Shown here piece by piece: positions 5,289 through 32,358 of a stretch of 64,000 nt of DNA. The notes under the pieces were generated by a model, which did not search any database, was not told the DNA's origin, and was given only the letters and a program-made list of their open reading frames with translations. A program made the position numbers and the translations under genes. Each line of letters begins with the position of its first letter. Position 1 is the stretch's first letter. Origin of the DNA: a virus; IMG/VR virus record IMGVR_UViG_3300035698_012128, positions 30,672-94,671 of that record. One strand, given 5' to 3'.

Positions 5289-5936
5289 ATGAATAAAAAT
5301 ACAAAAATATATGCTGTAATTAATTGTTATAATAATTATAATGATGTATATGTAGGTAAAACAATAAACAATACTAGAAAAAACGATCATAAGATAAAAT
5401 ATGGCTATAATATCGATTTCGTGGTGTTAGATGAAATTAGTGGAACAGATAGAAAAGATTGGAAACCATTAGAAACTTATTGGATACATCAATTCTATCA
5501 ATGGGGTTTTAATGTTCAAAATAAGCAAATGATTGGGGGTTGTGGAGTGGAATTTCATTCACAAGAATCCAAAAATAAAATAAAATATTCTAAATCACAA
5601 AAGCCCCACCCACTACTAAATTTAAAAATTGATAAATATTATAAAGATATAATAAATATGTACACCATGGGGGTATGTCCCTCGAATATAGGGTTAAAAT
5701 ATAAATGTCATAGTGATGTTATTAAAAGGGTTTTGAAGAGTAAGGGTGTGGAGTTAAGAAGTGCATCTGATTCCCAAAAATTTAGAAGTGGGGAGAAGAG
5801 GAGAAAAGATTTATGGGGTAGTATGAATAATATATTAGACTTACATAACAAAGGTGAAAGTTATACTTATATTGGGAAATTGTATAATACCAGTGATGTT
5901 CAAATAAAATTAATGATAAATAAAAATAGATTATAA
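5289..5936 (+). CDS. GIY-YIG-like homing endonuclease with C-terminal HTH repeats
   Basis: IYAV...VYVGKT, conserved E..WI, two HTH-like segments; free-standing before queE. Confidence 0.7.
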   Translation: MNKNTKIYAVINCYNNYNDVYVGKTINNTRKNDHKIKYGYNIDFVVLDEISGTDRKDWKPLETYWIHQFYQWGFNVQNKQMIGGCGVEFHSQESKNKIKYSKSQKPHPLLNLKIDKYYKDIINMYTMGVCPSNIGLKYKCHSDVIKRVLKSKGVELRSASDSQKFRSGEKRRKDLWGSMNNILDLHNKGESYTYIGKLYNTSDVQIKLMINKNRL

Positions 5937-6739
5937 TGGATTTCGATAAAATAGTACCCGTATTAGAGTTATATGGACCTGTGATACAATCAGAAGGGAG
6001 TAAGGTTGGTATACCTCACATTGTTGTTAGAACTACTGGTTGTGTTATGAGGTGTCATTTTGGTGAAGGTGGGTTTTGTGATTCATGGTACACTAGTATT
6101 CATCCCGAAAAAGGTAAATACACCATGAATGATATAGTAAAATTCATGATGAAATTTCCCGAATGTAATCATTTGATGTTGACCGGTGGTTCTCCTACTA
6201 TGCACCCCCAACTATGTGATACGATTGTCCAATATTTTAAGAACTTCCATAGAATTACTGATGATAATGGAACTATTATTCGTGAGGGGGTTGTAACCTT
6301 AGAAACTGAGGGTTCTCATATTATGGTGACTACATTTCCTATTGATTTGATATCACTTTCACCTAAATTCTCCAACAGTATTCCGGTTGAAGGGATGATG
6401 ACACCAATAGGTAAAAAAGTAACAGCTGGTATGGTGAGGCAACATAAAAAAAGTATGAGTAATACTAGAAATATGAGAATATTACTAGATAATCATACCG
6501 ATTACCACTTTAAACCTGTTGTAAACCCTACAGAAATGCCAGAGGTATGGGATGAAGTACTTGAAATGATTGAGGAGTTAAACATTCCCAAACATAAAGT
6601 ATGGATAATGCCTCCTGGAGATACTAAAGAAGAATTAATTAGGATATATCCTATGTTAATGGAATTCTGTGCAGAAAATGGATATAATTTTACAGGTAGA
6701 GATCACATTATTGCCTTTGGTGATAAAAGAGAAGTATGA
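5936..6739 (+). CDS. queE: 7-carboxy-7-deazaguanine synthase (radical SAM)
   Basis: IQSEG, RTTGCVMRC...CDS, LTGGSP, LETEG, SLSPK. Confidence 0.88.
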   Translation: MDFDKIVPVLELYGPVIQSEGSKVGIPHIVVRTTGCVMRCHFGEGGFCDSWYTSIHPEKGKYTMNDIVKFMMKFPECNHLMLTGGSPTMHPQLCDTIVQYFKNFHRITDDNGTIIREGVVTLETEGSHIMVTTFPIDLISLSPKFSNSIPVEGMMTPIGKKVTAGMVRQHKKSMSNTRNMRILLDNHTDYHFKPVVNPTEMPEVWDEVLEMIEELNIPKHKVWIMPPGDTKEELIRIYPMLMEFCAENGYNFTGRDHIIAFGDKREV

Positions 6740-7857: not shown

Positions 7858-7882
7858 TAGGTCTCATTTGAGACCTATTTTT
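7858..7882 (+). terminator. intrinsic terminator
   Basis: TAGGTCTC-ATTT-GAGACCTA followed by T run. Confidence 0.7.
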
Positions 7883-7967
7883 CTGTCTAAAAGGTAGTTT
7901 TAATAAAAGTTTCTTATTATATTTAGTAATAAGAGTATAGTTAATTGACGTATTAGAAATTTGTAAT

Positions 7968-8055
7968 AGAGGGCTGGCAGAACTGGCACAATTGCACTAG
8001 TCTTGAAAACTAGAGACCGGTAAACGGTTTATGGGTTCGAATCCCATGCCCTCTT
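7968..8055 (+). tRNA. tRNA-Ser(TGA)
   Basis: AGAGGGC/GCCCTCT, CTAGT-CTTGAAA-ACTAG, long variable arm. Confidence 0.95.
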
Positions 8056-8061
8056 CAATAA

Positions 8062-8132
8062 TGCCTTGTAGTGTAACGGCAGCACGCGTGGATTTGGCCC
8101 TCGCAGCATGGGTTCGAATCCCGTCAAGGTAT
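8062..8132 (+). tRNA. tRNA-Gln(TTG)
   Basis: TGCCTTG/CAAGGTA, loop ATTTGGC, TTCGAAT. Confidence 0.9.
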
Positions 8133-8133
8133 C

Positions 8134-8282
8134 TAAGTAGTAGAACAACTGATAGTTCAGCTTGCTAACAGATAAATTAAATTATAAGTCTGGTAAACAG
8201 GTTCAAAGTAGTTGAGAGAGGTTTAATATCAATAGTACGTAAATTCAACTTTGTGGTGTAGGTTTGAGTCCTACCTACTTAA
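8134..8282 (+). ncRNA. tRNA-like RNA with expanded anticodon and variable regions
   Basis: Acceptor TAAGTAG/CTACTTA, D-arm GAAC..GTTC, T-arm GTAGG-TTTGAGT-CCTAC, about 100 nt between D and T arms. Confidence 0.6.
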
Positions 8283-8302
8283 AACATTAATTAAAAACAA
8301 TT

Positions 8303-8623
8303 ATGGCATTAGATTTAGAAGTACTAAGAAAAAAACTAGATGATGCTTTAGTATCAGAAACAAAAGAGAGTTTTGAAAAATGGTTCGAAAAAACTAGAAT
8401 TGAAACTACTGAAAAAGATGTATTGAACCGTAACTACCATTTTCATATAGATGGTAATAAGTTAATTATCCAAAATTATTCTTATATGGATAGTGGGTGG
8501 TATGTAGAAGTAGATAGAAAAAAAGTATCGTTATATGAAGTATGGGAGGGTAATAAACCTCAAAAATACGGTGATTACGATACCATTTTAGAAGCTTTAA
8601 AAGATACGGTTAATTTAAGTTAA
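8303..8623 (+). CDS. hypothetical protein
   Basis: ORF inside tRNA array. Confidence 0.6.
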   Translation: MALDLEVLRKKLDDALVSETKESFEKWFEKTRIETTEKDVLNRNYHFHIDGNKLIIQNYSYMDSGWYVEVDRKKVSLYEVWEGNKPQKYGDYDTILEALKDTVNLS

Positions 8624-8672
8624 GTTATGAATAGTTTACTAAACTTCTATTGAAAATAAAAAGTTTAAAATT

Positions 8673-8751
8673 CGGAATGTAGAGGAGTCAGGTTTATCTC
8701 GTCTGCTTTGGGAGCAGAAGCACGTGGGTTCAAATCCCGCCATTCCGACCA
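8673..8751 (+). tRNA. tRNA-Pro(TGG), encoded CCA
   Basis: CGGAATG/CATTCCG-ACCA, TCTGC-TTTGGGA-GCAGA. Confidence 0.95.
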
Positions 8752-8757
8752 AAAAAT

Positions 8758-8833
8758 GCCTTCGTAACTCAGTTGGTTTCAGAGTACCGTGCTTTTAACA
8801 CGGGAGTCGGGAGTTCGAATCTCTCCGGGGGCA
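8758..8833 (+). tRNA. tRNA-Lys(TTT)
   Basis: CCGTG-CTTTTAA-CACGG, canonical cloverleaf. Confidence 0.95.
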
Positions 8834-8896
8834 CTAAAGTAGTATACGTTATGAGTCAAACAAACTTCACAGTAAATGAGATTAAAGAGTTAAAAT

Positions 8897-8971
8897 GCTC
8901 CCATAGCTCAGTTGGTATAGAGCGCTGATTTTACACGTCAGAGGTCACAGATTCGAATTCTGTTGGGAGTA
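8897..8971 (+). tRNA. tRNA-Val(TAC)
   Basis: CTGAT-TTTACAC-GTCAG. Confidence 0.95.
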
Positions 8972-9047
8972 CGAGGCGGAACGAAAACCGAAAGAAAGAA
9001 ACAGGAAAAACTTCGTGAGTTGTGTATCTCATTAAAAATCCACAAAT

Positions 9048-31200: not shown

Positions 31201-32358
31201 ATGTCTAAAATAAATATAACTGTAGGCTTAGCTTATGGTGATGAGGGTAAAGGTATGGTTACTAACTCTCATTTCAATGATGGTTCTAATCATTTATCAA
31301 AAATTGGGGTTAGATTTAGTGGCGGTCATCAAGCAGGCCATAATGTTGTATTACCTAATGGTATAAAACACATCCATTCCATTTTTGCTAGTGGTGCTAT
31401 TTCAGGATATGAAAGTTACCTTACAGAGCATTGTGTATTTTGCCCGTTATCTCTACAAATAGAAAGCGCGATAATAAAAAGTAAGATTGGGAAGAAACCG
31501 AAAATATCAATTCACCCATTCGCTATGTTGGTAACTCCATTTGATATTGTATTTAACAAATTTAAGGAAAAATATCATAATATTCAAACATCTTGTGGTC
31601 AAGGTATAGGTGCAACCATGGAAAGGAATATACAGTCACATTATAGTTTGAGAGCGGTAGACGTATTACACCCACACGTTTTTCTAAGGAAGTTATCTAA
31701 TATTCAAAAATACTATAGTGATAAAATGGAAGAGTATGGAACCACTTTACATGAATGGATTAATGAATTTAATATGCTTGAAGAGATTGATGAATTCAAG
31801 AGCAAATATATGAACGATTGGCAACTAAGAGACTATAGTATGTTAAGCGGATATAGCCAAATAAACTTTGAAGGTAGTCAAGGATTAATGTTAGATCAGA
31901 ATTTTGGTATATTTCCTGAGGTGACATATGCCAATACTACTATCAAAAACGCATTGGAAGTACTTGATCATATGCATTCAGTAGATAGTTTAAAAGTATG
32001 GAACTGTAGTAGAGCATATACGACTAGACATGGTGATGGTTACATTAATGGTCATAGAGATATTGAAGTAGGAAATGTAAGTGAAACAAACCAAGATAAC
32101 GAAAATCAAGGAAAATTTAAAGTGCGACCATTAGACTATGATGTATTAAATTACGCACTCAAGGTAAATGGTACTTTACTAAAGGGATGGGTAGCTGGTC
32201 ATAAAGAATTGGCTCATGGTCAATGCCCACTATTCCTGTTAGTTATAACATGCATGGATCACATTCCGATAGACACCTTTGATGAGTGTAAATTACCATC
32301 ATATGTTTTAGACGATATATATTATTCTGATAATCCTCTCAGTACAATATATAGATAA
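31201..32358 (+). CDS. divergent adenylosuccinate synthetase-like protein
   Basis: GDEGKG, GGHQAGH, EGSQG.MLD, AYTTRHG. Confidence 0.85.
   Translation: MSKINITVGLAYGDEGKGMVTNSHFNDGSNHLSKIGVRFSGGHQAGHNVVLPNGIKHIHSIFASGAISGYESYLTEHCVFCPLSLQIESAIIKSKIGKKPKISIHPFAMLVTPFDIVFNKFKEKYHNIQTSCGQGIGATMERNIQSHYSLRAVDVLHPHVFLRKLSNIQKYYSDKMEEYGTTLHEWINEFNMLEEIDEFKSKYMNDWQLRDYSMLSGYSQINFEGSQGLMLDQNFGIFPEVTYANTTIKNALEVLDHMHSVDSLKVWNCSRAYTTRHGDGYINGHRDIEVGNVSETNQDNENQGKFKVRPLDYDVLNYALKVNGTLLKGWVAGHKELAHGQCPLFLLVITCMDHIPIDTFDECKLPSYVLDDIYYSDNPLSTIYR

Follow-up and report, generated by a model that had tools for sequence, protein, structure and literature searches.

A 149-nt element with the shape of a tRNA lies on the plus strand at positions 8134-8282 of the window, that is, of the whole 64,000-nt stretch of DNA analysed here. 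On its sequence and fold, it is on balance probably a genuine gene, specific to its lineage, whose product would be a tRNA-like RNA that does not decode and is released by RNase P. This reading is supported by the 16 core pairs, all of which are Watson-Crick, in a frame absent from all 40 simulations; by the position of the element, flush with a tRNA-Gln on the array strand and with no terminator before the next genes; by the established existence of such RNAs in phages T4 (rnaC/rnaD) and T5 (RNA1/RNA2); and by more oversized frames in the window itself (60769-60892), in relatives and in Cellulophaga phages. It is weakened by the orphan status of the element, by the z scores of the whole fold (-0.56) and of the variable arm (+0.54), by inserts of background composition and by the A that follows the discriminator.

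The source is an uncultured phage, represented by a 94.7-kb IMG/VR virus record which is ~58% complete and has a G+C content of 30%. Its tRNA set, as called by ARAGORN, comprises 25 tRNAs serving all 20 amino acids, plus a tRNA with the anticodon UUA. The latter (14184-14258; 55.9 bits against the Rfam tRNA model, also called by ARAGORN) would be a reader of the UAA stop codon. Other genes of the phage encode a family B DNA polymerase, GroEL, a PurZ-like enzyme and glycosyltransferases, and a radical-SAM match is located at 5936-6739, upstream of the tRNA array. The PurZ-like adenylosuccinate synthetase homolog is found at 31201-32358 of the window (phrog_1211, E = 4e-48). Cultured relatives are all distant: the ATPase of a Tenacibaculum phage is 38% identical, and tRNAs of Cellulophaga phages are ~85% identical to three tRNAs of the present phage. 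These similarities weakly suggest a host among the Flavobacteriia.

Within the array, the element is preceded on the same strand by tRNA-Ser(UGA) at 7968-8055 and tRNA-Gln(UUG) at 8062-8132, both called by ARAGORN and scoring 50.3 and 48.1 bits, respectively, with the Rfam tRNA model. The discriminator of tRNA-Gln is position 8132, and the single base C8133 separates it from the element, in agreement with the original prediction, which had placed the start 1 nt after this tRNA. This junction is the tightest of the array, in which tandem tRNAs are elsewhere spaced by 5-15 nt. In 24 out of the 25 tRNAs (7968-15083) a C directly follows the discriminator, against a C frequency of 0.13 on this strand, and about half of them run on as C-U-A-A-A. 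This suggests that the C-U-A-A-A trailer is a shared 3′ processing signal of the array tRNAs.

The 5′ core of the element (8134-8159), read from the sequence, contains the first acceptor strand, U8, A9 and the D arm. The acceptor stem joins TAAGTAG (8134-8140) to CTACTTA (8275-8281) by seven Watson-Crick pairs and is followed by the discriminator A8282. The D arm has a 4-bp stem (GAAC/GTTC) and an 8-nt loop, AACTGATA, whose numbering is A14 A15 C16 U17 G18 A19 U20 A21. Next comes an enlarged anticodon arm (8160-8203; RNAfold), where the stem GCTTG (8160-8164)/CAGGT (8198-8202), with two G-U among its five pairs, encloses 33 nt. Inside, the arm shows a 5-6 bp stem, a 4x5-nt internal loop, a 5-bp CAGAU/GUCUG stem and a 14-nt loop composed entirely of A and U; folded alone, it reaches -7.1 kcal/mol (z = -1.65). 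The variable region (8204-8257) has 54 nt, with U8257 at position 48, and RNAfold places in it a 6-bp hairpin, AGTTGA/TCAACT (8210-8215/8245-8250), with a 29-nt loop. The last part (8258-8282), to which the Rfam tRNA model aligns, consists of the T arm, GTAGG-TTTGAGT-CCTAC at 8258-8274 with a 5-bp stem, the 3′ acceptor strand and the discriminator.

The original prediction had described a "tRNA-shaped RNA with inserts", and this label is right. The perfect 7-bp acceptor, the D arm and the T arm that it listed are all in place and entirely Watson-Crick, and its two further features, namely a GCTTG/CAGGT stem around about 33 nt with a CAGA/TCTG hairpin and an AGTTGA/TCAACT hairpin in the variable region, are likewise present (8160-8202 and 8210-8250, respectively). 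The five-arm cloverleaf is the unconstrained minimum-free-energy fold in RNAfold, with an energy no better than that of shuffled sequence, and the variable arm alone is no stabler than its shuffled counterparts. The core has 35% G+C as compared with a mean of 50% in the array tRNAs, and the inserts, at 31%, are at background composition. The intact core at this G+C content fits base pairing maintained in spite of mutation pressure towards A/T. No protein-coding frame covers the element; a 45-aa frame (8031-8168) touches its first 35 nt only and lies mostly over tRNA-Ser and tRNA-Gln.

The frequency of such frames was determined by scanning the window and Markov-simulated windows for frames of 95-220 nt with all-Watson-Crick helices of 7, 4 and 5 bp in tRNA register. 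Strict frames appeared 0.20 times per simulated window, and none of the 40 simulations gave one with the T-loop motif. In the real window there is exactly one strict frame with this motif, and it is 8134-8282. Moreover, the helices and core contacts of canonical tRNA (Rfam RF00005) are complete, with 7+4+5 Watson-Crick pairs, and the tertiary contacts U8-A14, A15-U48, G18-U55, U54-A58 and G53-C61, together with A21, can all form. The outer elbow pair is A19-U56 in place of G19-C56, so both sides have changed. The same combination of a UGAU D-loop and a UUUGAGU T-loop occurs in a normal tRNA-Met of an unrelated viral contig, and thus the A19-U56 elbow is a workable variant.

A chance resemblance within A/T-rich spacer DNA would agree with the unremarkable total folding energy and with the abundance of looser frames, since 39 were observed against 27 expected when G-U pairs and any loop sequence were allowed. 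Against it stand the simulations of the strict frame, the exactly flush position on the array strand and the full set of tertiary contacts, and such an origin is extremely unlikely. A part of the acceptor stem may be there for another reason, because its 5′ strand overlaps the motif AAGTAGTA, which also follows tRNA-Lys and tRNA-Leu(UAG).

As encoded, the element has no capacity for decoding. A 5-bp/7-nt anticodon arm with U33 is absent, as the stem encloses 33 nt and no alternative arm exists in the element; without a 7-nt anticodon loop, the reading of a codon is impossible in this form. In accordance with this anatomy, ARAGORN at default settings makes no call on the element, with or without introns, and the Rfam tRNA model (RF00005) gives 17.1 bits over 8205-8282 only, below its gathering threshold of 29 bits. 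The base after the discriminator is A, in contrast to the C of 24 out of the 25 array tRNAs, and because of the missing C the 3′ maturation of the element may differ or fail.

Several other identities were tried and rejected. Against a tmRNA, including a small one, A3-U70 stands at the third acceptor position instead of the tRNA-Ala-like G3-U70, and neither the tmRNA mode of ARAGORN nor Rfam gave a tmRNA match on the element. With the YrlA Y RNA model (Rfam RF02553) the score is 16.2 bits (threshold 69), from a weak match spanning the T arm of tRNA-Gln and the D arm of the element. A paralog of one of the tRNAs of this phage was also sought, and the best candidate was a weak similarity to tRNA-Arg(ACG). 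Finally, removal of the interval bounded by a putative target-site duplication, AAGTAGT, restores no tRNA.

The original prediction had proposed, as one alternative, a tRNA gene with an intron. In its fullest form the gene would be interrupted twice and spliced to a decoding tRNA, for instance one resembling Tyr(GUA) after removal of 8167-8192. There is a parallel in the oversized tRNA genes of Lak megaphages, which were read as intron-bearing and include a tRNA-Tyr(GTA) (bioRxiv 10.1101/356790), and ARAGORN with relaxed thresholds returns a Leu(CAA) with a 62-nt intron. Yet at default thresholds the program makes no call even with introns allowed. The predicted excision yielding CTGTAAA is possible on paper, but it has a non-canonical 33/34 position and leaves the 54-nt variable region in the product. 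When all 845 single excisions giving a product of 70-95 nt were enumerated and run through ARAGORN, 130 passed with 11 different anticodon calls, which places the signal in the frame and not in any one splice. The bulge-helix-bulge is absent, as the two sides of the 4x5-nt internal loop are directly opposed. At 33 and 54 nt, the inserts fall well below the size of group I (~200 nt or more) or group II self-splicing introns, and the intron families of Rfam have no match. Neither RtcB nor a tRNA splicing endonuclease (PF01139 and PF01974, both searched) was found in the 94.7-kb record, which is 58% complete. In addition, a normal tRNA-Tyr(GUA) is already present at 9048 (ARAGORN) and the element has no C74. 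The intron alternative is thus left with no specific support, and we regard it as very unlikely.

The transcriptional context is that of a short unit inside the array. A promoter-like 28-nt motif (7902-7929, plus strand; repeat family D8) is located upstream of tRNA-Ser, and a terminator-like hairpin (7858-7877) lies just before it. The A/T-rich motif, similar to AAAAGTTTCTTATTATATTTAGTAA, occurs in four copies (7902-7929, 9464-9491, 12287-12314 and 14469-14496 of the window) ahead of array transcription units, and it is probably a phage promoter. No terminator was found within the unit formed by tRNA-Ser, tRNA-Gln, the element and an orphan ORF of 106 aa (8303-8623, plus strand), whose start lies 21 nt beyond the element and which probably shares its transcript. 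The ORF product has no homolog among 5.8 billion proteins and no family match, and ESM Atlas was uninformative.

It is established that RNase P recognizes the acceptor/T stack and the elbow. A single precursor would carry tRNA-Ser, tRNA-Gln, the element and the 106-aa ORF, and the element would be a substrate of RNase P through its 12-bp acceptor/T-arm stack and intact elbow. Cleavage between C8133 and U8134 would create the 5′ end of the element, and the same cut would trim tRNA-Gln to U73-C74. A 3′ cut after A8282 would then part the element from the mRNA of the ORF. The expected product is a released RNA of ~149 nt that lacks a 7-nt anticodon loop.

The same steps could be the whole purpose of the element, if its tRNA shape acted purely in cis by recruiting RNase P and a 3′ endonuclease and the excised RNA had no role. 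Such a signal would give tRNA-Gln its 3′ end and the ORF mRNA a defined 5′ end, in line with the tightest junction of the array on one side and the close start of the ORF on the other, where neither a Shine-Dalgarno-like sequence nor a promoter is found between the two. Other tRNAs of the array, in contrast, directly precede ORFs or spacers with no such helper. Furthermore, an acceptor/T minihelix would suffice for this purpose, so that the D arm, the elbow contacts and 98 nt of inserts would have no explanation. A purely cis-acting role is accordingly judged improbable.

For the tRNA-like RNA reading, the function would be exerted through the top half of the tRNA, by occupying a protein that recognizes the tRNA shape, for instance an enzyme of processing, modification or defence, and the two A/U-rich arms would serve as appendages specific to the lineage. 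A more specific version holds that the top half, with its A19-U56 elbow, is a selected mimic which titrates a host enzyme that recognizes the tRNA shape and not the anticodon, its RNase P cleavage being coupled to the 3′ maturation of tRNA-Gln. We put this forward as a doubtful proposal; the target could be a maturation enzyme or a defence toxin directed at the acceptor or the elbow. The original prediction had also considered a tRNA mimic serving as decoy for anticodon nucleases. The mimic part fits the anatomy, whereas the decoy part is unlikely, since the RNA presents no anticodon loop to such nucleases.

The main rival to the tRNA-like RNA reading is a non-functional tRNA remnant. In this case, insertions in the anticodon and variable loops would have produced a decaying pseudogene, perhaps still cut by RNase P as a by-product. 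A remnant would account for the absence of conserved relatives, for inserts with background composition and no significant stability, and for the loss of the array's C74 signature. Other tRNAs, besides, already serve all 20 amino acids, and pseudo-tRNAs are annotated within such arrays in phage records. Decay at 30% G+C, on the other hand, should bring G-U pairs or mismatches, but the core retains 16/16 Watson-Crick pairs and the full set of tertiary contacts, one of which, A19-U56, has changed on both sides. Two independent large insertions next to an untouched frame are unparsimonious, and useless DNA tends to be deleted from phage genomes. Overall the pseudogene is a serious but rather unlikely explanation.

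The element is an orphan, with no relatives in any of the collections searched. A blastn search against 50,697 phage records yielded no homolog. Exact patterns of 21-33 nt from the T arm/acceptor, the D arm and the adjacent tRNA-Gln were run against IMG/VR, JGI metagenomes and GTDB genomes, and their only match fell in an unrelated tRNA-Met, within its T arm. Searches anchored on the proteins of neighbouring ORFs found no homologous locus, although an identical copy of one neighbouring ORF is present on a 2.8-kb contig. A related polymerase is carried by 11 viral contigs, at 38-65% identity. Against 10 out of the 11 polB relatives (~60% identity, nearly whole), blastn-short and nhmmer retrieved ordinary tRNAs only, and a single-sequence covariance model of the element over 577 kb of collected loci likewise gave only ordinary tRNAs, at no more than 28 bits. 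Finding no homolog, and hence neither covariation nor a sign of conservation, counts against the tRNA-like RNA reading, and by itself an element without relatives cannot reveal the function of such RNAs.

The kind of RNA is already known from T4 and T5, and the element is a new orphan member of that class. The class is operational and not a homology family: it comprises RNAs of ~115-150 nt in phage tRNA clusters, flush with a tRNA and with an acceptor/T module but no anticodon loop, and the element has all of these features. In T4, rnaC (139 nt) and rnaD (119 nt), the species 1/2 RNAs, are non-decoding genes of a tRNA cluster with a size similar to that of the element. T4 rnaD starts 1 nt after tRNA-Arg, just as the element does after tRNA-Gln, and rnaC has a canonical T arm beside its 3′ end, comparable to that of the element. 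However, rnaC shows an imperfect acceptor-like stem and no clean D arm, whereas the cloverleaf core of the element is complete. The T4 genes have no sequence similarity to the element, and they are annotated as small stable RNAs while the element is known from DNA alone.

In T5, RNA1 (144 nt) and RNA2 (125 nt) are annotated in the tRNA region as "tRNA-like stable RNA with unknown functions". They share with the element an acceptor, a D arm and a T arm, the last two separated by large inserts, but no sequence homology. The D arm of RNA1 is of Leu type; that of the element is of the class I type (4-bp/8-nt) with the A19-U56 elbow. In bacterial-type Y RNAs of the YrlA group, the tRNA-like module is circularly permuted relative to tRNA. 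YrlA (Rfam RF02553) is a non-decoding mimic of the acceptor/T/D module of tRNA, a feature also seen in the element.

Devoto et al. (bioRxiv 10.1101/356790) described "enigmatic introns" in oversized tRNA genes of Lak megaphages. Like the element, these genes of phage tRNA arrays exceed the length that tRNA finders accept, and their anticodon region contains additional sequence (bioRxiv 10.1101/356790). Conservation of the Lak inserts extends across cohorts, and their boundaries are defined by variants in which the insert is present or absent (bioRxiv 10.1101/356790); the element, in contrast, has no relative, two inserts and no unique excision.

Oversized tRNA-shaped genes are frequent in phage tRNA arrays and are skipped by annotation tools, and their function has been unexplained since the stable RNAs of T4 and T5 were described. 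The element adds an example with an unusually complete tRNA core, with all tertiary contacts and a compensated elbow, and with a core that is intact in spite of a very low G+C content.

A second oversized tRNA-shaped RNA, of 124 nt, was identified by its frame at 60769-60892 of the window, on the minus strand, where neither ARAGORN nor Rfam makes a call. Its T arm is canonical (GTAGG-TTCGATT-CCTAC), its D loop contains GG, and the anticodon loop is replaced by a long branched arm; it starts 6 nt past the stop codon of an ORF and has a C after its discriminator. Among the relatives, a tRNA-Leu-like frame occurs in RNAs of 126-158 nt at L028:4768-4924, L051:559-716(-) and L047:4146-4271(-). A hairpin is inserted in their D loop, and two of them have a variable arm of ~75 nt. 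Homology between the RNAs of L028 and L051 is clear, 5 of their 41 pairs being compensated; the RNA of L047 scores 30.8 bits against the Rfam tRNA model. Homology of the element to the 60769-60892 frame or to these Leu-type RNAs was rejected, since only the generic tRNA frame aligns.

Two further A/T-rich oversized tRNA frames, of 141 and 116 nt, are unannotated in the Cellulophaga phage phi4:1 (NC_021788, about 90991-91131 and 91135-91250; L062:7789-7929 and 7933-8048). They follow the last annotated tRNA in tandem, preceded by a promoter-like TTGACA, and are identical in phi17:2 (L063). Beyond the generic tRNA frame they have no homology to the element, and coming from cultured phages they are better experimental material than the element itself. 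A 99-nt tRNA frame with canonical D and T arms and a disrupted anticodon region is also present in two relatives (L024:5662-5760 and L026:2892-2990(-)). At the same array position, after tRNA-Glu and just upstream of tRNA-Gln, the relative G007 has a tRNA-Phe(AAA) according to ARAGORN.

A phage-encoded tmRNA is located beside the tRNA genes of relatives with ~60% polB identity, at L024:6599-7002, L026:1688-2053(-), L028:5563-5967, L046:3191-3553(-) and L050:19270-19676(-). Their tag peptides are alike, for example DNELSTMTFDDLMSFVGADYALAA. No tmRNA was found in the present record, which is 58% complete.

Structured spacers were also noticed in the arrays. The spacer between tRNA-Leu(UAG) and tRNA-Thr of the window (13559-13706) has a closing stem of 13/15 bp, AAGAAAGTAGTATAG/CTAGACTACTATCTT, and no T arm. 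This stem includes AAGTAGTA, the motif which opens the 8134 element and follows tRNA-Lys. In two relatives, a conserved spacer of ~95 nt comes after tRNA-Thr (L033:2050-2145(-) and L043:10845-10948). Because it opens with GGTGGTAG and ends with CACC, it is probably another structured RNA.
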